A program made the position numbers and the translations under genes. Below, one piece after another: positions 3,294 to 12,477 of a DNA stretch of 64,000 nt (position 1 is its first letter; the number at the start of each line of letters is the position of its first letter). The notes under the pieces are model-generated. The model made no database searches. It had not been told where the DNA came from and saw nothing but the letters and a program-made list of their open reading frames with translations. The stretch lies in contig JACPXC010000062.1 of assembly GCA_016196755.1 (NCBI GenBank), positions 45,043 through 109,042 of the forward strand. Reading direction: 5' to 3'. The DNA comes from Elusimicrobiota bacterium. Lineage in GTDB: Bacteria; Elusimicrobiota; Elusimicrobia; UBA1565.

Positions 3294-3896
3294 ATGCCCC
3301 GTCGGAGCTTCCCGGCCGCCCTTGCCGCCTGCGCCTTGGCCTGCTCGGTCCCGGCCCCCGTGGCGCCTCCCCCGTCGCCGGTCGCCAGCGCCGAGCTCCC
3401 CCGCGACCCCCAGGTCCTGCGCGCCGCTGTGCGCGACGCCTACGCCGCAGGCGACTTCACGCGCGGACTCGCGCTCGTCAAGCGCCTGCTCGAGGTCTCC
3501 ACCGACAAGGTCACCGCCTACGACGCCATCGGCTCGATCTACTTCTCCCTGGGCCGCGGGGCCGAGGCGATGGGGATGTGGGAGGCCGCCCTGCCGCTTG
3601 AGACCGACCCCAAGCGGCGCGCCGAGCTGGCCGCCTCGGTGTCCTTGGCGCGGCGCAGCCTCGGCCTGCCCGAGCCCAAGCCGGCGGCGGCCGCCAAGCC
3701 CCCCAAGAAGCCCGCCAAGACGCAGACCCCCGCCGACCCGCGCCGGGTCGAACTGCTCTACCAGGAGGGCCTGGTCAAGTACGCGAAGGGCGAGTACCTG
3801 GCCGCCACCACCCTGTTCATGCGCGCGCTGGAGCTCGACCCCAAGCATACCCCGTCGATCAAGGCCCTCGAGCGCCTCAAGCTCAACGCCCCATGA
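3294..3896 (+). CDS. TPR-like lipoprotein
   Basis: Signal peptide with lipobox LACS, TPR-like helical pairs, Lys/Pro-rich linker. Stop overlaps the next start (ATGA). Confidence 0.6.
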   Translation: MPRRSFPAALAACALACSVPAPVAPPPSPVASAELPRDPQVLRAAVRDAYAAGDFTRGLALVKRLLEVSTDKVTAYDAIGSIYFSLGRGAEAMGMWEAALPLETDPKRRAELAASVSLARRSLGLPEPKPAAAAKPPKKPAKTQTPADPRRVELLYQEGLVKYAKGEYLAATTLFMRALELDPKHTPSIKALERLKLNAP

Positions 3897-5206
3897 CCTT
3901 GCGCCTCAAACTGGGGTTGGCGCTGGCCTTGGTCGCGCTGGGCTCGACGGCCGCCGCCACGGCGCTCATGTTCCGCCTCCAGACCGAGGCCCTGCGCGCC
4001 TCCGAGGCCGAGACCCTGCGCCTGCTTTCGGACGGCGTGCGCCGCGTCGCCCAAGAATCCCTGCTCGCCCAGGACCCGCTCATGCTGCTCGACCATCTCG
4101 CCCACCTGCGCCGCGAGAGGCCCGAGGTCGCCGCCGCGCGGGCCATGGTCTCCGGTACCTGGCGCGAGGTCGGCGGCCCCGCCAAGGCCGACGCGGGGCC
4201 ACCCGTCGGAATAAAGGCGCAGGCCCCCGACGGCGCCGCGGCCGAGGCCGAGCTCTCCTTCTCGACGCGCCTCTTGGCCGAGCGCATGGCCGCGGCCCGC
4301 GCCGAGCTCGGGGCCCGCGCCCTGCGCGCCGGCGGCCTGGCCGCGGCGCTGGGGGTGGTCGTCGCGGCCCTGCTCAGCGCGCCGCTGACCGGGCGCATCC
4401 TCCGCATCGAGCGCGCCGTGGCCGAGATAGCGGAAGGCAAGCTAGGCGTCCAGGCCGAGGCGGCGGGCTCCGACGAGGTGGCCCGCCTGGCCCGCGGCGT
4501 CAACGCCATGTCGGCCCGGCTCAAGGAGCTCGACGAGCTCAAGCGCCTGTTCGTCGCCTCGGTCACCCACGAGCTGCGCTCGCCGCTGGGTGCTATCCAG
4601 GCCCAGGCCGCCGAGCTCATCGCCGCCGGCGGTCTGGCCGAGGGCCAGGCCGAGATGCTGGGACGGGTCCGGCGCAACGCGGCCCGGCTCGAGCACTTCG
4701 TGGCCTCGCTGCTCGAGGTGGCCAAGATCGAGCGCGGCCAGCTCGAGTACTCCCCCCGCCGGGCGGTCCTCGGCCCCATCGTCGAGGACGCCGCCCTGTT
4801 CTTCGCCGCCCGCGCGCGCGAGGCGGGCCTGAGCATGGAATCCCGCGTCGAGCCCGGCCTGCCCGAGCTCAACCTCGACCCCGACCTCATGACCCAGGCG
4901 GTGACGAACCTTATCTCCAACGCCATCAAGTACACCCCCAAGGGCGGCCGCGTCACGGTCTCGGCCGCCAAGGAAGGCAGAGCCGTCGAGGTGGCCGTCG
5001 CGGACACCGGCGTCGGCATCGCCCCCGAGGCTCTAGCCCGCCTCTTCACCCCCTTCGAGCGCGTCAAGAACCCCACCGGCGCCCCCGGCGTTGGCCTCGG
5101 ACTCGTCATCACCAAGTCCATCATCGAACGCCACGGCGGCACGCTCACCGTGACTTCCCAACCCGGCCAAGGCAGCCGGTTCTCCTTCCGCCTTCCTGTT
5201 GCGTAA
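3893..5206 (+). CDS. Sensor histidine kinase (2 TM, HAMP, HisKA, HATPase_c)
   Basis: H-box VTHELRSPLGAI, HAMP-like linker, G-boxes DTGVGI and GLGLVI, two hydrophobic segments. Confidence 0.85.
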   Translation: MTLRLKLGLALALVALGSTAAATALMFRLQTEALRASEAETLRLLSDGVRRVAQESLLAQDPLMLLDHLAHLRRERPEVAAARAMVSGTWREVGGPAKADAGPPVGIKAQAPDGAAAEAELSFSTRLLAERMAAARAELGARALRAGGLAAALGVVVAALLSAPLTGRILRIERAVAEIAEGKLGVQAEAAGSDEVARLARGVNAMSARLKELDELKRLFVASVTHELRSPLGAIQAQAAELIAAGGLAEGQAEMLGRVRRNAARLEHFVASLLEVAKIERGQLEYSPRRAVLGPIVEDAALFFAARAREAGLSMESRVEPGLPELNLDPDLMTQAVTNLISNAIKYTPKGGRVTVSAAKEGRAVEVAVADTGVGIAPEALARLFTPFERVKNPTGAPGVGLGLVITKSIIERHGGTLTVTSQPGQGSRFSFRLPVA

Positions 5207-5265
5207 GGGGTCAGACCTCGATGTTGCGTTTGTTGCGTTCGGGGTCAGACCTTCATGTTGCGTAA
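5191..5265. repeat. REP-like repeat cluster (tandem units built on a TGTTGCG heptamer and GGGGTCAGACC hairpin core)
   Basis: GGGGTCAGACCTCGATGTTGCG at 5207-5228 and GGGGTCAGACCTTCATGTTGCG at 5241-5262. TGTTGCG occurs at about 5196, 5222, 5231 and 5256. The histidine-kinase stop codon lies inside a partial unit (cttcctgttgcgTAAg). Confidence 0.6.
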
Positions 5266-5280
5266 GTGCCTTTTGTCGCC

Positions 5281-5309
5281 TTGACGAGCCAACGGCCGGG
5301 CCGTAAACT
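5281..5309 (+). promoter_or_regulatory. Sigma70-like promoter (TTGACG-17-TAAACT) for the response-regulator operon
   Basis: TTGACG at 5281-5286, TAAACT at 5304-5309 with 17-nt spacing, ATG at 5318. Confidence 0.4.
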
Positions 5310-5317
5310 ATCGCTCC

Positions 5318-5686
5318 ATGGCGGAAATACTCGTCGTCGATGATGAAGAGGATTACCGCCTCCTATTGCGGCACATCCTCGAGCGCGCTGGCCACAAGGT
5401 AAAGCTCGCCGACTGCGGCGAGGCAGGCCTAGCGGCCTACCACAAAGCGAAGCCTGACCTTCTCATACTAGACGCCAACATGCCGGACCTCGAGGGCTAC
5501 GAGGTCTGCAGGCAGCTCAGGTCCGCCGGGCACAAGACCCCGGTGATCTTCTGCACGGTCCGGTCCGCGGTATCGAAGGTAGCCGAAGGATTGCGCGCCG
5601 GAGGAGACGACTACGTCGTCAAGCCCTTCTCGCCGGAAGACCTCCTTGGGCGGGTGAAGGACGTCCTTTCTCGGCCCGGAAAATGA
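5318..5686 (+). CDS. Single-domain response regulator (CheY-like receiver)
   Basis: VVDDEED acidic pocket, phospho-acceptor Asp in LILDANMPDLEG, conserved Thr/Ser and Lys (VVKPF). Confidence 0.85.
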   Translation: MAEILVVDDEEDYRLLLRHILERAGHKVKLADCGEAGLAAYHKAKPDLLILDANMPDLEGYEVCRQLRSAGHKTPVIFCTVRSAVSKVAEGLRAGGDDYVVKPFSPEDLLGRVKDVLSRPGK

Positions 5687-6360
5687 GGAACCTGGACGTC
5701 GCCGTCGTGGACGGCGACGCCGGACGCCGAGAAGGATTGACGGCTATCCTCAAGTCGCGCGGTCACAAAGTAGCGAGCTACGCGACCGCTGGGCGATTCT
5801 TCGACGGTATGCTCGCGGAGCCGGCGCGGGCAGCATTCATTTCGATGGAACTGCCCGGCATGGATGGGAGGGAAGTCATCCGCGTACTGCGCGCGAACCC
5901 GGAATGCCGAGGCATGGTACTGATCGCGCTCTCGGCGGGCAGAAGGCGCCGCGAGGAGGTCCTCGCCGGGTTCGAAGCCGGGGCCGACGAGTTTCTCGAG
6001 GTCCCGTTCGACCCCGATTTCCTGACGGTACGATTGGAGTCGTTGCTCCGCGCCCGGCCGGCCGCCGCCGCGGCAAACATCTTCGACCTTGACGGCATCG
6101 CAATCGACTTAGATGCCCGTACCGTCACGGTCGCCGGAAAGCCGGTCAAGCTTACCCGCCTCGAATTCGACCTAGCCGCACATCTTGTCCGTCATAGAGG
6201 ACGCGTCCTCACGCGGGGAGCGCTTCTCGGCGCTGTATGGGGTACGAACGGTTCGAGCTCACGCACCGTCGACAAGCATGTCGAGGCGCTGCGCAGGAAG
6301 CTCCCTCCTTTGGCCAAGCGGCTCGACACCATCGTCAATGTCGGCTATCTGCTCCGCTAG
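5683..6360 (+). CDS. OmpR/PhoB-family winged-helix regulator with a degenerate (pseudo-)receiver domain
   Basis: C-terminal trans_reg_C motifs (LTRLEFDLAAHLVRHRGRVLTRGALLGAVWG...VDKHVEALRRKL). In the receiver, the phospho-acceptor position reads ISMELPGMDG (Asp to Ser) and the conserved Lys is Val (EVPFD). ATGA overlap with the upstream regulator. Confidence 0.75.
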   Translation: MRNLDVAVVDGDAGRREGLTAILKSRGHKVASYATAGRFFDGMLAEPARAAFISMELPGMDGREVIRVLRANPECRGMVLIALSAGRRRREEVLAGFEAGADEFLEVPFDPDFLTVRLESLLRARPAAAAANIFDLDGIAIDLDARTVTVAGKPVKLTRLEFDLAAHLVRHRGRVLTRGALLGAVWGTNGSSSRTVDKHVEALRRKLPPLAKRLDTIVNVGYLLR

Positions 6361-7154
6361 GTCGATTCCTGTTTTGCCCTTTTCTCCCTAGCGCGACTCG
6401 CGCAAGAACGGTCGCGCCTGAGGAATGAGGCCACATCGATCCCTTTCGCTCCCTGCCGCAGCGCTTCTTGGATGAAGCGCGCCCTTGCCTTGACGGCCGG
6501 GCCGGAACGATCGCGGCTCCGCAGTATGCCGGCCGGAAGGCCTTCCGCGCGTTCGACGCTGGCGATGATCGCCTCCAAATCGGCAGACGCCGACTGTGGC
6601 TCAGGAGCCCTTTCGGGTTCTTCCATGAACCGGTTGTAGGCCAGTACGGCCGCCGCTCTATCCAAGTCAAACAGCGAGAGTCCGAAGTCCATCTCAGCGA
6701 AGCCGTCCGGCACCCCTGTCGCATACGCGTTATGGCTAGACCACTTCCAATCTGAGGGCTTCTCGACTAAGCCGTGCCGGACGGGATTGCGGTGAATATA
6801 CCTCAAGACCTCCTGCACGTGAGCGTCTGAATGGCAGGGAAAGGCCTTGAACCGACCTTGAAAGACATGTCCAACGCGATCATGAGCCTTGTTGGATCTC
6901 ATCGCGAAAGAGGTCAGAGAGGCCTGTATCGCTCTCGAGATCGATTCCTCGAAGATACGGATTAAAAGGTGAAAATGATTCGGAATGAGGCAATAGGCGA
7001 GAAGGTCCGCGACAGGCAGCGACAATTCCTCCTTGAGCTTCTCCATGAACTTACCCCACTCGTCTTCGGCCTCGAACACCGTCTGCCTGCGATTGCCGCG
7101 GGAAATCACATGCATGACCGAACCGGGGACGAAGATCCTAGGAGGGCGTGCCAT
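6357..7154 (-). CDS. IS200-like Y1 HUH (RAYT-type) transposase with C-terminal DnaA-C-like HTH domain
   Basis: ORF 6357..7208, start taken at MARPPRIF. Motifs HVISRGNRRQTVF, LIPNHFHLLIR (HUH), HVFQGRFKA, RYIHRNPVRHG, followed by a DnaA C-terminal-like helix-turn-helix (ILRSRDRSGPAVKARARFIQEALRQ). Converges on the second response regulator with a 4-nt overlap. Confidence 0.8.
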   Translation of the reverse strand: MARPPRIFVPGSVMHVISRGNRRQTVFEAEDEWGKFMEKLKEELSLPVADLLAYCLIPNHFHLLIRIFEESISRAIQASLTSFAMRSNKAHDRVGHVFQGRFKAFPCHSDAHVQEVLRYIHRNPVRHGLVEKPSDWKWSSHNAYATGVPDGFAEMDFGLSLFDLDRAAAVLAYNRFMEEPERAPEPQSASADLEAIIASVERAEGLPAGILRSRDRSGPAVKARARFIQEALRQGAKGIDVASFLRRDRSCASRAREKRAKQEST

Positions 7155-7200
7155 AACATGTAATACGCTTATCCCCCCGATTTGGTTCCCTTTAAAGAAG

Positions 7201-7235
7201 CGCAACATCGAGGTCTGACCCCGAACGCAACAAGC
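7201..7235. repeat. REP-like repeat, inverted copy (22 nt identical to 5207-5228, 35 nt similar to 5229-5262)
   Basis: Reverse complement of 7201-7222 is GGGGTCAGACCTCGATGTTGCG; the flanking gcttgttgcgttc also matches. Lies in the 5' leader of the transposase, next to a TATAAT at 7236-7241. Confidence 0.6.
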
Positions 7236-7260: not shown

Positions 7261-7350
7261 GGAGAGGTGCGTGAGTGGTTGAAACGAAACGACTGGAAAT
7301 CGTTTAGGGTGTAACAGCCCTCGGGGGTTCGAATCCCCCCCTCTCCGCCA
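7261..7350 (+). tRNA. tRNA-Ser (anticodon GGA), CCA encoded
   Basis: Hand-folded cloverleaf: acceptor GGAGAGG/CCTCTCC, anticodon loop CTGGAAA, long variable arm, T-arm GGGGGTTCGAATCCCCC, discriminator G plus CCA. Confidence 0.85.
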
Positions 7351-7540: not shown

Positions 7541-7771
7541 ATGGAAACCGGCGTCGTCACCATAAAGGGACAGGTTGTGATTCCGTCGAAAATCCGTCAT
7601 CGCCATCAGATCAAGAAAGGGACCAAGGTCTGCTTCATCGAACGCGGCGACGAGATCATCTTGAAGCCGGTCACCGACGAATACATCGACAAGCTGCGGG
7701 GGTCTCTGGGCACGAAAGGAGCCGTCCTCAGGTCCCTTATCGAGGAAAAGGGGCGCGAAAAGAAATTGTGA
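7541..7771 (+). CDS. AbrB/MazE/SpoVT-type antitoxin
   Basis: Swapped-hairpin motif TIKGQVVIPSKIRHRHQIKKG; 76 aa; stop overlaps the toxin start. Confidence 0.75.
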   Translation: METGVVTIKGQVVIPSKIRHRHQIKKGTKVCFIERGDEIILKPVTDEYIDKLRGSLGTKGAVLRSLIEEKGREKKL

Positions 7772-8175
7772 GCGGCAAGGTCTTGGACTCGTACGGAGTC
7801 ATCGCCTTCCTCGAGAATGAACCGGGAGCCGACAAGGTCGCTGAACTAATCAAGAGCGCCCGGGATAAGGACAGGCCCCTCCTCTTAAGCGTGGTGAACT
7901 GGGGAGAAGTCTATTACATCGTTCATCGCGCCGCGGGAAAAGAAGCCGCCGCCCGAACGATGCGGACGATCGACACGCTCCCGATCCAAGTCATTGAGGC
8001 GGATCGAACGCTCACGCAGATCGCCGCGGAGTTCAAATCCTCCGGAAAGATGTCCTACGCGGACTGTTTTGCGGCAGCTCTCGCCAAGGCTCGGAAGGCG
8101 GAACTCATAACCGGCGATCAGGAATTCAAGGCAGTAGAAGATGAGATCGAGATCCTCTGGCTTCCTAAAAAATGA
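7768..8175 (+). CDS. vapC: PIN-domain ribonuclease toxin (VapC-like)
   Basis: GTG at 7768 (GTGA overlap with the antitoxin stop). PIN acidic residues (LDSYGVIAF..E..., ...ITGDQEF). Confidence 0.7.
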   Translation: MSGKVLDSYGVIAFLENEPGADKVAELIKSARDKDRPLLLSVVNWGEVYYIVHRAAGKEAAARTMRTIDTLPIQVIEADRTLTQIAAEFKSSGKMSYADCFAAALAKARKAELITGDQEFKAVEDEIEILWLPKK

Positions 8176-8191
8176 GGCCCCTGAGCCGGAA

Positions 8192-9616
8192 ATGAACAAG
8201 AAGCCGACGCTGGCGCTGCCCCTGCTCGTGGGCTCCTCGGCCCTGGCGCTGTACCTTTCCCTCCCGTCGCTCGGCCACAACTTCGACGGCGTGGCCTGCG
8301 CCATCGCCGTCGAGCTGGGCGATTTCAAGCATCTCGTCCACGGCAACCACCTGGCCTACGGCCTGGCCGGGTTCGTCTTCCATCGCCTGGTCAACGCCCT
8401 CGGCCTGGCCCTGCCGGCGATCTGGGCGCTGCAGGTCATGGACTCCCTGCTCGGCGCGCTGTCGGCCGCCCTGTTCGCCCGCATGCTCCTGCGCCTGGGC
8501 CGGCCCGCCGGCGTGGCCGCGGCGGCCGGCATGGGACTGGCCGTGTCCTACGGCTGGTGGCTGCGTTCCGTCGACGCCCAGGTCTACCTGCTGGCCGCGC
8601 CGTTCATGGTCCTGGCCTTCGAGGAGGTTTTGGCCGAGCGCCCCCGGCCCCTGCGTCTGGCCGCCCTGCACACCGCCGCCATGCTCGTCCATTCGGTCCA
8701 CGTTTGCTTTACGCCGGTGGCCCTCTGGGCCCTCCTGCGCGCCGGCAAGGACTACGGCGAGTCGCGCGCCGGCCTGGGACGCTACCTGGCCTTCTGCTTT
8801 TTGGGCGTTCTGGCCGCCTATGCCGCGGCGGTGACGCTCTTGGTGCGGCCGGAAACGGTCGAGGACCTGCGCGTCTGGCTCTCCGGCAGCGCGGCGCTCG
8901 GCAACCAGCGCGACTTCCGGTTCATCCACGCCGCCTCGCTGGGCTCCGCGCTGGCCTGGTGGGGACGGGTGTCGCTCAAGGTCGTCTCGATCCGGCCGCT
9001 CCTCGGCCTGCCGCTCTGGGGCCTGGCGGCCTGGGGCTGGCTGGCCGGCGCGTCCCGCCGCGAGCGCGTCGCGGCGCTCGTCTGGGTGGCCGGCTACGCC
9101 CCCCTCCTCCTGGCCTACGAGCCGTGGAACACCGACTACCGGATCCTCGAGCTCATCCCGCTGTGGGCCTTGGCCGCCGCGGCGTTCTCACCCGAGCGCG
9201 CCCGCGGCGGCGCGCGGGCCTTGGCGTTCTACGCCGCCGCGCTCGGCGCGGTCAACGCCGCCGACGCCATCCTGCCGCTGTCGCGCCTCGCCGAGAACCC
9301 GCCGCTCGTGAAGACCCTCTGGCTGCGCCGCATCCTCCCCGAGGACGCCTGGGTCAGCGCCGCCGCCATCGACGAGGTCTACATCCCGTACTTCAGCCAT
9401 CGCCGCACGCTCAACCTGCGCTGGCACGAAGGCGACCCGGCCGGGCTGCGCCGGCGTCTCGACGGCCTGCTCGAGCGCGGCGAACCCGTGTTCGTGACCT
9501 CGGACCATCTGGCGGGCTGGCGGGAGGCCTTCGGCGGCTACGAGCTCCAGCACGCCGGGGAGCAGGACGGCGTCGTGCTCTACAGGTTGAAGGGGAAGCC
9601 CAAGGGCAGCTTGTAG
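8192..9616 (+). CDS. Polytopic membrane protein, putative GT-C-fold glycosyltransferase
   Basis: ORF 8141..9616 trimmed to ATG 8192 (MNKKPTLALPLLVGS). About 10 or more hydrophobic helices with a large C-terminal soluble domain. Confidence 0.4.
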   Translation: MNKKPTLALPLLVGSSALALYLSLPSLGHNFDGVACAIAVELGDFKHLVHGNHLAYGLAGFVFHRLVNALGLALPAIWALQVMDSLLGALSAALFARMLLRLGRPAGVAAAAGMGLAVSYGWWLRSVDAQVYLLAAPFMVLAFEEVLAERPRPLRLAALHTAAMLVHSVHVCFTPVALWALLRAGKDYGESRAGLGRYLAFCFLGVLAAYAAAVTLLVRPETVEDLRVWLSGSAALGNQRDFRFIHAASLGSALAWWGRVSLKVVSIRPLLGLPLWGLAAWGWLAGASRRERVAALVWVAGYAPLLLAYEPWNTDYRILELIPLWALAAAAFSPERARGGARALAFYAAALGAVNAADAILPLSRLAENPPLVKTLWLRRILPEDAWVSAAAIDEVYIPYFSHRRTLNLRWHEGDPAGLRRRLDGLLERGEPVFVTSDHLAGWREAFGGYELQHAGEQDGVVLYRLKGKPKGSL

Positions 9617-10404
9617 AAGAAGGTGATCATAGCACCCAGGCTCAGGTAGGGGCCGAAAGGGATCGGCTCCTGACGCTTGATCCGACCCGAGGCCAGGAGC
9701 CAGACCCCGTAGCCGGCCCCGACGAAGGAGGCCAGCATCAAGGTGTCGAAGGCGCCCAGCGCCCCGGTCCACGCCCCGACGCCGGCCAGGAGCTTGACGT
9801 CCCCGGCCCCCATCGCCTCGCGCTTGAAGAGCTTCTCGCCGGCGGCCGCCACGCCCCAGCACAAGGCCAGGCCGAAGACCGCTCCCCCGACCGACGCCCC
9901 GAGCCGGCCCCAGAACGCGCCACCCAGTCCCGCGTTGAGCGGCGAGAGCAGGATCCCCGCCGCGGCCAGGCCCAGGGAGAGCTCGTCGGGGATGAGGAAG
10001 GTGTCGCAGTCGATGAAGGCCACGCAGAGCAGGGCGATGAGCGCGGCCAAGGCGGCGGCGGCCCAGGCCCATTGCCCTTCCCAGTGCCGCCAGACCGCGG
10101 CGGCCAAGAGGCCCCCCAGGAGCTCGACGAGCGGGTAGCGCCAGGAGATGGGCTTTTCGCAGTGGCGGCAGCGGCCGCGCAGGAGGAGCCAGCTGAGCAC
10201 CGGCACGTTGTCGTAGAAGGCCACCGGGCGCCGGCAGCGCGGACAATGCGAGCCGGGGCGCACCAGCGAGCGGCCGCGCGGCAGGCGGTGGATCACGACG
10301 TTCGAGAAGCTCCCCAAGCAGAGCCCGGTCAGGACCCAGAACGCCCAGGCCGCGGTCTGGAAGGCGGCCGCCGAGGTCGGGTCTTGGAACGCGTTTGATA
10401 TCAT
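9580..10404 (-). CDS. pilD: Prepilin peptidase (A24 family, PilD-like)
   Basis: N-terminal zinc-binding CPRC...CRHC pair, catalytic-region motif GAGDVKLLA, multiple TM segments. Confidence 0.85.
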   Translation of the reverse strand: MISNAFQDPTSAAAFQTAAWAFWVLTGLCLGSFSNVVIHRLPRGRSLVRPGSHCPRCRRPVAFYDNVPVLSWLLLRGRCRHCEKPISWRYPLVELLGGLLAAAVWRHWEGQWAWAAAALAALIALLCVAFIDCDTFLIPDELSLGLAAAGILLSPLNAGLGGAFWGRLGASVGGAVFGLALCWGVAAAGEKLFKREAMGAGDVKLLAGVGAWTGALGAFDTLMLASFVGAGYGVWLLASGRIKRQEPIPFGPYLSLGAMITFFYKLPLGFPFNL

Positions 10405-10410
10405 CGGTCG

Positions 10411-11883
10411 GTGAGGCGAGCCTGGGCCGGTCTATTCTCCGCCGCGGCCGTGCTGTATTTGCTGGCCCGCGACGCCTACTGGGTCGGCTACTTCAACGAC
10501 GACGCATTCTATCTTATCGGAGCCCGGGCCCTTACCGAGGGGCGCTTCGCCGAGCTCAACCACCCCGGCCAGCCGCCGCTCATCCAATACCTGCCCGGCT
10601 ACCCCCTGCTCTTGGCCCCGCTCATGCCCTTCTGCGCGGCCTCGTGGCTGCCGGCCCAGCTCCTGAGCGTCCTCGTGGGCCTGAGCTCGGCGGCCGCCGC
10701 GGCCTGGGCCTTCGCCCCGGACCTCGACGAGGAAGGCCGCCTGCTGCTGGCCGCGCTCTGCCTCTTCAACCCGCTGGCCCTCAGCCTCTCCGGCGCCGTG
10801 CTGGCCGACGCCCCCTTCGCCTTGGCCGCGCTGCTCCTCGTCGGCACGGCGCGCCGGGCTTGGCCGCGGACCTCGCCCCGGGTCTGGGCGGCGCTGGGCG
10901 CCGCCGCCGGGGCGTCCGCTCTCATCCGCCCCAACGGCCTGGCCCTCATCCTGGCTTTGGCCGCCGCGTTGGCCTGGGAGCGGCGCGGGCGCGAGGCCGC
11001 CGCGGCGCTGGCGGCGGCCGCACTCGTCGTCGGCCCCTGGTTCCTGCGCAACGCGGCGGCGGGCGGGCACCCGCTGCTCTACGCCGCGGAGCTGGCCGGA
11101 CCGATCGAGGCCGCCCCATGGACGACATTGGGCGCGGCCGCCTCGCGGGCCGGGTTCTACCTCTCCGAGCTCTACGCGCGCGCGCTGTTCCGCTGGCCCT
11201 GGGGCGCCCCTCCCGCGGCGGCGGCGGCGGCCGCGGCGCTGGCCGGCTTGGCGGCCGCCGTGCTGGCCCTCACGCGCGGCGGCCTCTCCGGCGGCCGGCG
11301 CTTCGCCCTGCTCTCGGCGCTGGCGCTGTTCGGGCTCCTCTTGGCCTGGGACAAGCGCTCCACGCGCTACCTGCTCCCGCTCATCCCGTTGGCGGCGGCC
11401 TGGGGCCTGGCGGGCCTGGCAGGCCGGCGCGGGACGCGGCTGGCCGCCGCGGCCTTGGCGCTGGCCTCCTTCATAGTCCCGGCCCGCGCCATCCTGGCCG
11501 CCTCCCTACGCCCTGAGGCGCCGCCGGCGCGGGCGCCCGAGCGCACTTTCGCCTGGATCCGGGCCAACACCGCGCCCGGCGCGGTGTTCGCCTGCGAGCT
11601 CGACGGCCAGCTCTTCCTGCGCACCGGCCGCCGGAGCGTGACCCTGCCGCGCGGCGCCGACGGCCGAAATCTCCAGCTCTGGGCCGCCGGCTCGGGCGCG
11701 GATTTCCTGCTGGTCTCCCCCACCGCCGACATCCTGCGCACCACGCGCGGCGTCGGCCCCCACGACGCGGTGCCGGCCGCCGAGCGCCGGCGCGACGCCG
11801 GCCGAGCCTCCGTCCTCGAGCCGGTCTTCGAGGACCCCGGGGAAGGCACGGTGATATACACAAAAAAGACCCCCGGCCTTTAG
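10411..11883 (+). CDS. GT-C glycosyltransferase, ArnT/PMT-like (GT39/83-like)
   Basis: GTG start; first-loop YFNDDAFY acidic motif typical of ArnT/PMT-type GT-C enzymes; polytopic; Ala-rich. Confidence 0.55.
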   Translation: MRRAWAGLFSAAAVLYLLARDAYWVGYFNDDAFYLIGARALTEGRFAELNHPGQPPLIQYLPGYPLLLAPLMPFCAASWLPAQLLSVLVGLSSAAAAAWAFAPDLDEEGRLLLAALCLFNPLALSLSGAVLADAPFALAALLLVGTARRAWPRTSPRVWAALGAAAGASALIRPNGLALILALAAALAWERRGREAAAALAAAALVVGPWFLRNAAAGGHPLLYAAELAGPIEAAPWTTLGAAASRAGFYLSELYARALFRWPWGAPPAAAAAAAALAGLAAAVLALTRGGLSGGRRFALLSALALFGLLLAWDKRSTRYLLPLIPLAAAWGLAGLAGRRGTRLAAAALALASFIVPARAILAASLRPEAPPARAPERTFAWIRANTAPGAVFACELDGQLFLRTGRRSVTLPRGADGRNLQLWAAGSGADFLLVSPTADILRTTRGVGPHDAVPAAERRRDAGRASVLEPVFEDPGEGTVIYTKKTPGL

Positions 11884-11899
11884 GCCGAGGGTCTCTTTT
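11868..11899. terminator. Bidirectional rho-independent terminator
   Basis: GACCCCCGGCC-TTTA-GGCCGAGGGTC hairpin, followed by TCTTTTG on the plus strand and a T-run on the minus strand. Sits between convergent genes. Confidence 0.55.
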
Positions 11900-11916
11900 G
11901 ATCTTTTGGGACTAGC

Positions 11917-12369
11917 TCAGTACACCGTCCACTCGGTGCCCTTCGAGTCCGTGTGGGTACAGTTCACCCACAGCGTCCCGTAGTTGGCGTCCCCGGTGAC
12001 GTTGTTGTAGCGCCAGCCGCCCGTGCCGCCGCCCGTCTCGGCCAAGACCGAGTTGTTCGTGAACACCGCGCTGTCGGTGTGGTAGCTCGGAGCCTTCGCC
12101 TTCGGGATCGACGACATGTACTTGCCGTTGATCGTTATCGAAGCCGCGTTGAGCGGGTAGTAGCCTTCCATGTCGCCGTAGTAGATGCTCAGGGCCGACC
12201 GAATCGCGCCGAGGTTGCCCTTGGTCGCGCCTTCGTTCGACTTGCGGATCAGCTCAGCGAACTTCGGGATGGCGATAGCCGCCAAGATACCGATGATGGC
12301 GACCACGATCATCAACTCGATGAGCGTGAAGCCCCGCTTCGCCTTGCTGCTGTTGTTCAGGTTACGCAT
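11917..12369 (-). CDS. Type IV pilin / pseudopilin (N-terminal methylation motif)
   Basis: ORF 11917..12486 trimmed to MRNLNNSSKAKRGFTLIELMIVVAIIGILAAIAIPKF (class III signal, G-1/F+1/E+5). Strong RBS GGAGGGAGGACAAA precedes the ATG. Confidence 0.85.
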   Translation of the reverse strand: MRNLNNSSKAKRGFTLIELMIVVAIIGILAAIAIPKFAELIRKSNEGATKGNLGAIRSALSIYYGDMEGYYPLNAASITINGKYMSSIPKAKAPSYHTDSAVFTNNSVLAETGGGTGGWRYNNVTGDANYGTLWVNCTHTDSKGTEWTVY

Positions 12370-12477
12370 TTTGTCCTCCCTCCTTTGCGCCGTGATGATG
12401 AATTTAGGAGTGGATTTTTCGATACGGCGCTCATGGACGACGCCATGCACACCCTGAACATCCAAAGAACTGGTCAC

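Follow-up and report, generated by a model that had tools for sequence, protein, structure and literature searches.

An aspartate-less OmpR-type regulator coupled to a canonical receiver-only protein in Elusimicrobia: a possible split response regulator

Receiver domains without the phospho-accepting aspartate, termed aspartate-less receivers (ALRs), account for about 4% of receivers; at 15%, Ser ranks third among the replacements, and a 2015 survey found 609 ALRs of OmpR type (PMC4395418). How pseudo-receivers, the wider class to which ALRs belong, are activated is largely unknown and was called a mystery in a 2025 review; nearly every studied example is an orphan that lacks an obvious input, and the 20 atypical regulators that it discusses include just two non-orphans, CmrT and FrzS (PMC12632262). 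Here we analyze an Asp-less OmpR/PhoB-type regulator encoded in a 64,000-nt stretch of Elusimicrobiota DNA (assembly GCA_016196755.1, contig JACPXC010000062.1, positions 45,043 to 109,042, referred to as the window), where it lies directly behind a canonical receiver-only protein and close to a sensor histidine kinase. The best explanation overall, to which we give about an even chance, is that this is a maintained Asp-less regulator within a coupled pair, driven via the small receiver.

The described regulators ChxR (Chlamydia), HP1043/HsrA (Helicobacter), RitR (Streptococcus) and GlnR (actinomycetes) are ALRs with the same architecture, a receiver followed by Trans_reg_C, and likewise have catalytic residues replaced. 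The Elusimicrobia regulator is not closely related to any of them and, unlike the orphan ChxR/HP1043 type, is clustered with a kinase gene and a canonical receiver-only partner. Like typical ALRs, it keeps the Thr/Ser and Tyr/Phe switch residues (PMC4395418). A combination of kinase, canonical receiver protein and Asp-less OmpR-type regulator is also found in CmrRST of Clostridioides difficile, where the two receiver proteins are co-transcribed and CmrR forms heterodimers with the pseudo-receiver regulator CmrT, as found experimentally (PMC12548384); for the Elusimicrobia pair, heterodimers are only proposed. CmrR, moreover, has its own DNA-binding domain and autoregulates, whereas the canonical partner here is a receiver of 122 aa and nothing else, and CmrT carries Glu at the Asp position, where the window regulator has Ser. 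There is no detectable orthology between the two systems, which differ in phylum and gene order; the kinase in Elusimicrobia is usually separate and often convergent, and the window cluster is not a three-gene operon of the CmrRST type.

Two further systems show how a receiver can act on another regulator. In Xanthomonas, the phosphorylated receiver-only protein VemR binds the OmpR-family regulator HrpG and raises its activity, with the kinase HpaS shared between them (PMC9923393). HrpG differs from the regulator studied here in that it is paired with HpaS as a two-component system and is not presented as Asp-less; the vemR and hrpG genes are not described as translationally coupled, and no homology is evident beyond shared domain families. 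In Streptomyces BldM-WhiI, an atypical regulator that forms no homodimers pairs through receiver domains with another regulator to give a functional heterodimer (PMC4125116), the difference being that both proteins are of NarL/FixJ type, both have DNA-binding domains and both are orphans without a known kinase. Heterodimers between a pseudo-receiver and a receiver have been proposed as one route by which a pseudo-receiver could become part of a two-component system (PMC12632262).

The window regulator matches Response_reg (PF00072) over residues 6-118 with 42.1 bits (gathering score 30.2) and Trans_reg_C (PF00486) over residues 152-224 with 64.8 bits (cut-off 26.2), the latter along the whole profile (1-77 of 77), which gives the N-terminal receiver and C-terminal winged helix of the OmpR/PhoB family. 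The register of its signature residues was taken from HMMER alignments to the solved MtrA, PrrA and RegX3 and from three independent MAFFT family alignments, all of which agree. D10-G11-D12 occupies the acidic pair, with Gly in place of the second, metal-binding Asp; the phospho-Asp position is Ser54 and the Lys position Val107, while both switch residues are kept, as Ser84 at the Thr/Ser position and Phe104 at the aromatic position. Three of the canonical five residues are thus replaced (G11, S54, V107) and D10 and S84 remain. An earlier note on this DNA had read the Asp-to-Ser and Lys-to-Val replacements and a DGD acidic pocket by eye; the profile alignments place no Asp or Lys at the conserved positions and confirm that reading, as they and the predicted fold confirm the intact winged helix it described. 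Its statement that such regulators act without Asp phosphorylation agrees with what is known for the class (PMC4395418, PMC12632262). With a receiver match above the gathering score and the Asp absent, the receiver domain is, as judged from its sequence, an ALR and hence one of the pseudo-receivers as these are defined (PMC4395418, PMC12632262), and taken alone the regulator is an ordinary member of this known class. We conclude with high confidence that phosphorylation at the canonical site is impossible and that the protein is a functional, selectively maintained OmpR/PhoB-family transcription factor.

The low Pfam score of the receiver domain might suggest that the feature is not real but stems from misalignment, from an error in sequencing or assembly or from decay into a pseudogene, a possibility that we regard as negligible. 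The three alignment methods concur, and a protein 100% identical to the regulator occurs in an NCBI Elusimicrobia metagenome-assembled genome and in two independent SRA assemblies, which rules out a sequencing artefact; the contigs found to encode this protein span only 1.6-2.0 kb, and the wider gene context was taken from homologs. The degenerate site is itself conserved. None of the 17 closest homolog cluster representatives (63-100% identity) has the Asp, which is Ser in 16 of them and Ala in one; all have likewise lost the Lys, with Val, Ala, Gly, Glu or Thr at its position, and the second acidic residue, where Gly, Ala or Ser is found. The codon for Ser54 varies synonymously between TCG and TCC. 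Pairwise ratios of nonsynonymous to synonymous divergence (dN/dS) among four genomes were well below 1: the degenerate receiver domain gave 0.2-0.5, the DNA-binding domain 0.12-0.47 and the small receiver encoded upstream 0.14-0.27. Synonymous divergence was close to or above 1 in pairs that include the window. An AlphaFold2 model built from a 38-sequence family alignment is a complete (βα)5 receiver plus winged helix with a mean predicted local distance difference test score of 88.9, and its top Foldseek matches are the canonical OmpR/PhoB regulators PrrA, MtrA, KdpE and RpaA, the atypical RitR, HP1043 and GlnR ranking below PrrA, MtrA and KdpE. Conservation of the degenerate site, dN/dS and the predicted fold together rule out a pseudogene or artefact.

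The gene directly upstream encodes a receiver-only response regulator with a fully canonical DD-D-T-Y-K signature and a Response_reg score of 107.7 bits. Its TGA is overlapped by the regulator ATG in the sequence ATGA, and the two genes, which are translationally coupled, share a transcription unit, as the earlier note had supposed. Its description of the small receiver as CheY-like suits the architecture and not the similarity: the best NCBIfam matches are receiver regions of the OmpR family, e.g. RpaB, CreB and MtrA, and NF041367 (CheY_Halo), the sole CheY model among the 25 best-scoring families listed, reached 71 bits against an equivalog cut-off of 200. No che genes turned up among the neighbors examined, although the window was not scanned exhaustively for them. 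A recent duplication giving rise to the two receivers was ruled out, as the domains are only ~30% identical. We propose that the small receiver is the real phospho-acceptor of the module.

The conservation of this arrangement was followed in about 40 Elusimicrobia loci, collected from homolog contexts and a scan of one genome per species and processed by tblastn, open reading frame extraction and alignment. In 36 of 40 loci, the OmpR-type gene is immediately preceded by a receiver-only gene (120-133 aa); three of the exceptions are cut by contig ends, and in L031 the receiver match is split into two overlapping pieces ~1.4 kb upstream. A 4-nt overlap joins the two genes in 24 of the 36 loci; in the others, the spacing varies between an overlap of 20 nt and a gap of 16 nt. 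The small receiver retains a canonical (D/E)D-D-(T/S)-Y-K signature in all 36 loci. Its OmpR-type partner is canonical in most loci and has lost the Asp in eight, where it is replaced by Ser (window, L013, L014), Arg (L035, L043), Glu (L033, L050) or Ala (L015); the Lys is also gone in all of these except L015. We hold with high confidence that the unit of receiver-only and OmpR-type genes is old and Elusimicrobia-wide.

Loss of the Asp is concentrated in loci linked to the kinase. The kinase of the window and the tetratricopeptide repeat (TPR) gene before it have full-length orthologs that adjoin the receiver-regulator pair, in either orientation, in 10 loci, and in nine of these the TPR ortholog adjoins the kinase ortholog. 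The regulator is Asp-less in seven of the 10 kinase-linked loci, compared with one of the 30 others, which have different neighbors. A first neighbor-joining tree had suggested several separate Asp losses; the locus-based tree groups the Ser, Arg and Glu forms in one kinase-linked clade adjoining canonical kinase-linked loci. We would claim from this tree two or more losses, that of the Ser/Arg/Glu clade and that of L015/P0018, the L015 loss probably being independent and recent, although neighbor-joining with midpoint rooting and long branches is weak evidence either way on their number. A phylum-wide Elusimicrobia split response regulator, in which the phospho-site of the kinase-linked partner became dispensable, was lost and drifted to Ser, Arg or Glu, is a tentative extension of these observations that we hold with more doubt than belief.

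The kinase contains two transmembrane segments predicted by eye and HAMP (37 bits), HisKA (47 bits) and HATPase_c (105 bits) domains, with SVTHELRSPL as its H-box. Its start overlaps the stop of the TPR gene, whose product is a probable accessory partner, and the TPR, kinase, receiver and regulator genes constitute the sole two-component cluster in the window. The 111-nt gap between the kinase stop and the receiver start is occupied by two repeats resembling repetitive extragenic palindromic (REP) sequences and by a promoter-like element whose -10 box stops 8 nt short of the receiver ATG, which would make the transcript nearly leaderless. The same element, TTGAC[AG]-17-TA[AC]ACT, lies directly before the receiver gene in many related loci (e.g. 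L016, L020, L027, L042, L046) and ends ~8-10 nt before the start codon across loci, a position that points to transcripts with little or no leader for the operon in this group. Of the 10 kinase-linked loci, three (the window, L013 and L027) have the kinase gene upstream and in the same direction as the pair; in the remaining seven it lies downstream and is convergent. Taken together, the convergent kinases and the recurrent promoter-like element indicate that receiver and regulator form one unit and that the kinase is probably a separate, linked unit, not reliably co-operonic with the pair; the placement of the pair in one operon behind the kinase, as first assumed, is therefore not upheld. 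Inspection of 150 nt upstream of the receiver gene in the 36 loci revealed no convincing OmpR-type direct repeat for the clade of the window.

To see which surfaces are under changed constraint, 17 Ser-clade regulators were compared with 58 canonical relatives. The Ser clade is relaxed at the second acidic position, the Lys position and position 124, and has switched the phospho-Asp position to Ser. Positions conserved specifically in this clade number 15 of 42 in residues 84-125, the α4-β5-α5 region, versus 9 of 83 elsewhere, although the lesser depth of the Ser clade relative to the canonical group exaggerates this conservation to some extent. They include G86-RRRR-90, E92, V93, F97-E-A99, F104-L-E106, L118, S120 and R125, so that G86-R-R-R-R90 ... 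F97-E-A-G-A-D-E-F-L-E106 stands out as a clade-specific conserved stretch on α4/β5. Within the same region, G100, A101, E103 and R117 are invariant family-wide and D102 is nearly so; we take E103 and R117 to match the D101/R115 pair of the PhoB dimer interface.

The GRRRR loop, E92 and E106 flank the former active site and are conserved in the Ser clade only, which could mean that the pocket has been re-purposed, with Ser54 phosphorylated by a Ser/Thr kinase, or the pocket and G86-RRRR-90 loop binding an anionic ligand or second messenger. The retention of Ser in 16 of the 17 close homologs, despite synonymous codon variation, would fit this idea, as would the suggestion of the ALR survey that Ser, Thr or Tyr at the Asp position may serve as an alternative phospho-site (PMC4395418) and the precedent of pseudo-receivers that bind c-di-GMP or antibiotics (PMC7010744, PMC12632262). 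However, position 54 is Ala in the close homolog cluster P0005 (6 member sequences) and Arg or Glu in sister sub-clades, so Ser is not required across the Asp-less clade; these Arg and Glu sub-clades do not have the Arg-rich loop, we recognized no ligand-binding motif, and a crude regular-expression scan found no Hanks-kinase catalytic-loop motif in the 64-kb window. Given the Ala, Arg and Glu relatives, the absence of the metal-binding Asp and the Lys on which phosphotransfer chemistry depends and the lack of a nearby Hanks signature, phosphorylation of Ser54 is unlikely to be an essential step, and we consider a re-purposed pocket quite improbable.

Helix α1 docks on the dimerization and histidine phosphotransfer domain of the kinase in canonical two-component systems, and here the two receivers differ. 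In a comparison at the same depth, of 11 small-receiver orthologs (P0121-P0131) with the 17 regulators, α1 of the small receiver is nearly invariant (mean column entropy 0.44, domain mean 0.46), whereas in the regulator it is the second most variable element of the receiver domain (1.54, domain mean 0.77); this contrast is suggestive and not decisive, α1 being variable also in canonical relatives, at ~1.5 times the domain mean. The α4/β5 region is tightly conserved in both proteins. The variability of the regulator α1 argues against kinase binding, and with it against a decoy or anti-activator role, in which the regulator, rather than being a transcription factor in itself, would mainly titrate the small receiver or compete with it for access to the kinase. 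Such competitor and titration models have been discussed for pseudo-receivers in two-component systems (PMC12632262), and the gene is linked to that of a kinase; yet the DNA-binding domain is the most strongly conserved part of the protein and its recognition-helix motif R194-T-V-D-K-H199 is invariant family-wide, leaving this role a very slim chance.

The α4-β5-α5 face is the dimerization surface of OmpR-family regulators, and we infer, with moderate confidence, a path from the kinase through the phosphorylated small receiver to the Asp-less regulator. The kinase would phosphorylate the small receiver, the sole acceptor left in the cluster, which would then contact the regulator, receiver to receiver, on the α4-β5-α5 face and thereby change its oligomeric state or DNA binding. 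The regulator would no longer dock on the kinase but would keep a functional α4-β5-α5 face, and the pair would amount to a split response regulator, one part being a detachable phospho-switch and the other the DNA-binding subunit. The split circuit suggested earlier thus gains comparative support from the distribution of Asp loss and the contrast in α1, while remaining an inference. The alternative label, a connector-type circuit, is a loose analogy only: known connectors such as PmrD are small non-receiver proteins that bind a phosphorylated regulator and link two systems, whereas both proteins of this pair are receiver-domain proteins.

Besides the depth of the Ser clade and the behavior of α1 in canonical relatives, several points weigh against this mechanism. 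Contact between receiver and regulator is a proposal drawn from sequence and linkage, and a set of 36 receiver-regulator pairs is too small for an analysis of coevolution. Any two proteins from a shared operon could show such translational coupling and co-conservation, single-domain receivers often have outputs of their own, and the kinase sits in a separate transcription unit in most genomes. Most characterized Asp-less OmpR regulators, ChxR and HP1043 among them, are constitutive homodimers that need no partner (PMC3960148, PMC12632262).

By that default, the regulator would be a constitutive, phosphorylation-independent homodimer controlled by its amount only, as proposed for ChxR, HP1043 and possibly CmrT, and the small receiver would do something unrelated, e.g. 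serve as a phosphate sink, act as a feedback modulator of the kinase or control a non-transcriptional target, for instance the nearby pilus or envelope machinery. Conservation of the α4-β5-α5 region suits homodimerization equally well, the receiver-regulator pair has its own promoter-like element, and its neighbors include pilus and envelope genes. The best structural matches of the modeled receiver domain alone are BeF3-activated receivers (TM-score 0.93, root-mean-square deviation 1.2-1.3 Å), which is weak evidence because AlphaFold may be biased toward that state. On the other hand, a constitutive regulator would leave the kinase without a route to transcription, since the small receiver has no DNA-binding domain and the regulator no phospho-site, yet kinase, receiver and regulator stay linked through inversions. 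Nor would the concentration of Asp loss in the kinase-linked lineage be expected if the kinase were irrelevant, and the 4-nt overlap is maintained in two thirds of the loci with a pair. We rate constitutive action as rather unlikely, though the most serious of the alternatives.

Pseudo-receiver regulators are a few percent of all receiver proteins, and what is of interest in this case is not the protein itself but its conserved pairing and the way in which loss of the phospho-site depends on lineage. An Asp-less regulator sits inside an otherwise complete signaling cluster, and canonical and Asp-less versions of the pair occur in related genomes, so that input from a partner receiver can be tested with a few recombinant proteins. 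If the phylum-wide split reading is correct, the family would be a graded natural series for how pseudo-receivers switch on and off, since this one orthologous pair exists in nature in both canonical and Asp-less form. The case also shows that selection on the receiver domain can persist after loss of the phospho-site, provided that a partner receiver is present. A full-text search for papers on Elusimicrobia two-component systems found nothing specific, and a conserved, coupled receiver-only/OmpR-type pair with lineage-specific phospho-site loss appears to be undescribed in the searchable literature.

Table 1. Coordinates of the receiver-regulator locus and its surroundings within the window
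Feature	Position	Strand	Remarks
TPR-repeat protein	3294..3896	+	Pfam TPR_2 and related families; N-terminal signal or lipoprotein-like sequence (by eye)
Sensor histidine kinase	3893..5206	+	Two predicted transmembrane segments, HAMP, HisKA, HATPase_c
REP-like repeats, tandem copies	5197-5229, 5231-5263	+	33 nt each
Sigma-70-like promoter candidate	5281..5309	+	TTGACG-17 nt-TAAACT; consensus scan
Canonical receiver-only response regulator	5318..5686	+	122 aa; D8 D9, D52, T80, Y99, K102
OmpR/PhoB-type transcription regulator with aspartate-less pseudo-receiver	5683..6360	+	225 aa
Pseudo-receiver domain	5683..6048	+	Residues 1-122; alignments, dN/dS, conservation profile, AlphaFold (βα)5 fold
G11 codon	5713-5715	+	Pseudo-receiver domain
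S54 codon	5842-5844	+	TCG
S84 codon	5932-5934	+	Pseudo-receiver domain
F104 codon	5992-5994	+	Pseudo-receiver domain
V107 codon	6001-6003	+	GTC
Winged-helix DNA-binding domain	6088..6357	+	Residues 136-225; Pfam Trans_reg_C, invariant columns
IS200-like Y1 transposase	6357-7208	-	Pfam Y1_Tnp; possibly REP-associated transposase
REP-like repeat, third copy	7201-7233	-	33 nt
tRNA-Ser(GGA) gene	7261-7350	+	Immediately outside right-hand REP-like repeat
MazE/AbrB-type antitoxin	7541-7771	+	VapBC-like module
PIN-domain toxin	7768-8175	+	VapBC-like module
Envelope/pilus genes	8141-12378		491-aa membrane protein without Pfam match; prepilin peptidase (A24); PMT_2-like glycosyltransferase (weak, below gathering score); type IV pilin-like protein with N_methyl motif

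Several observations concern variants of the pair in other genomes. P0081 (264 aa, on a 948-nt ENA contig) appears to join the N-terminal half of the small receiver in-frame to the regulator from β3 on, a chimera that could be an assembly artefact or the product of natural recombination between the adjacent receiver-coding regions. In L008/L009 (the P0030 locus) and similar loci not linked to the kinase, a receiver-metallo-β-lactamase-fold protein precedes the pair, MotA/ExbB- and MotB/OmpA-like genes follow it and a dCache-PAS kinase lies convergent a few kb downstream; these canonical-branch loci represent a different wiring of the same two-gene core. A conserved TGTTAAATTTTCAAG-like motif, which could be an operator or a divergent promoter element, occurs ~40-70 nt upstream of the receiver start only in loci not linked to the TPR-kinase pair (L015, L019, L021, L023, L024, L025, L034, L040, L041, L049).

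The receiver-regulator cassette also differs in orientation. With the flanking TPR-kinase genes and the membrane-protein, prepilin-peptidase and PMT_2 genes as reference, the cassette is inverted in place between the window (3294-7208) and L005 on one side and L003 and L006 on the other. The 33-nt REP-like repeat (GTTGCGT..GGGGTCAGACC..ATGTTGCG) is present in exactly three copies in the 64 kb, versus 0 expected by chance, and these copies, in inverted orientation, bracket the receiver gene, the regulator gene and the Y1 transposase. The repeats were not found in related loci even with up to 6 mismatches allowed and therefore cannot explain the orientation difference in general, so REP-mediated inversion was rejected as its general cause. 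A Y1 transposase is present in L006 too, between regulator and kinase, and in L014 a tRNA-like sequence, recognized by eye, is located just upstream of the receiver gene. The VapBC-like module is inserted between the transposase and the conserved membrane-protein gene, which belongs to an envelope/pilus neighborhood that is conserved in L003 and L006 and whose genes are possible targets of the regulator.

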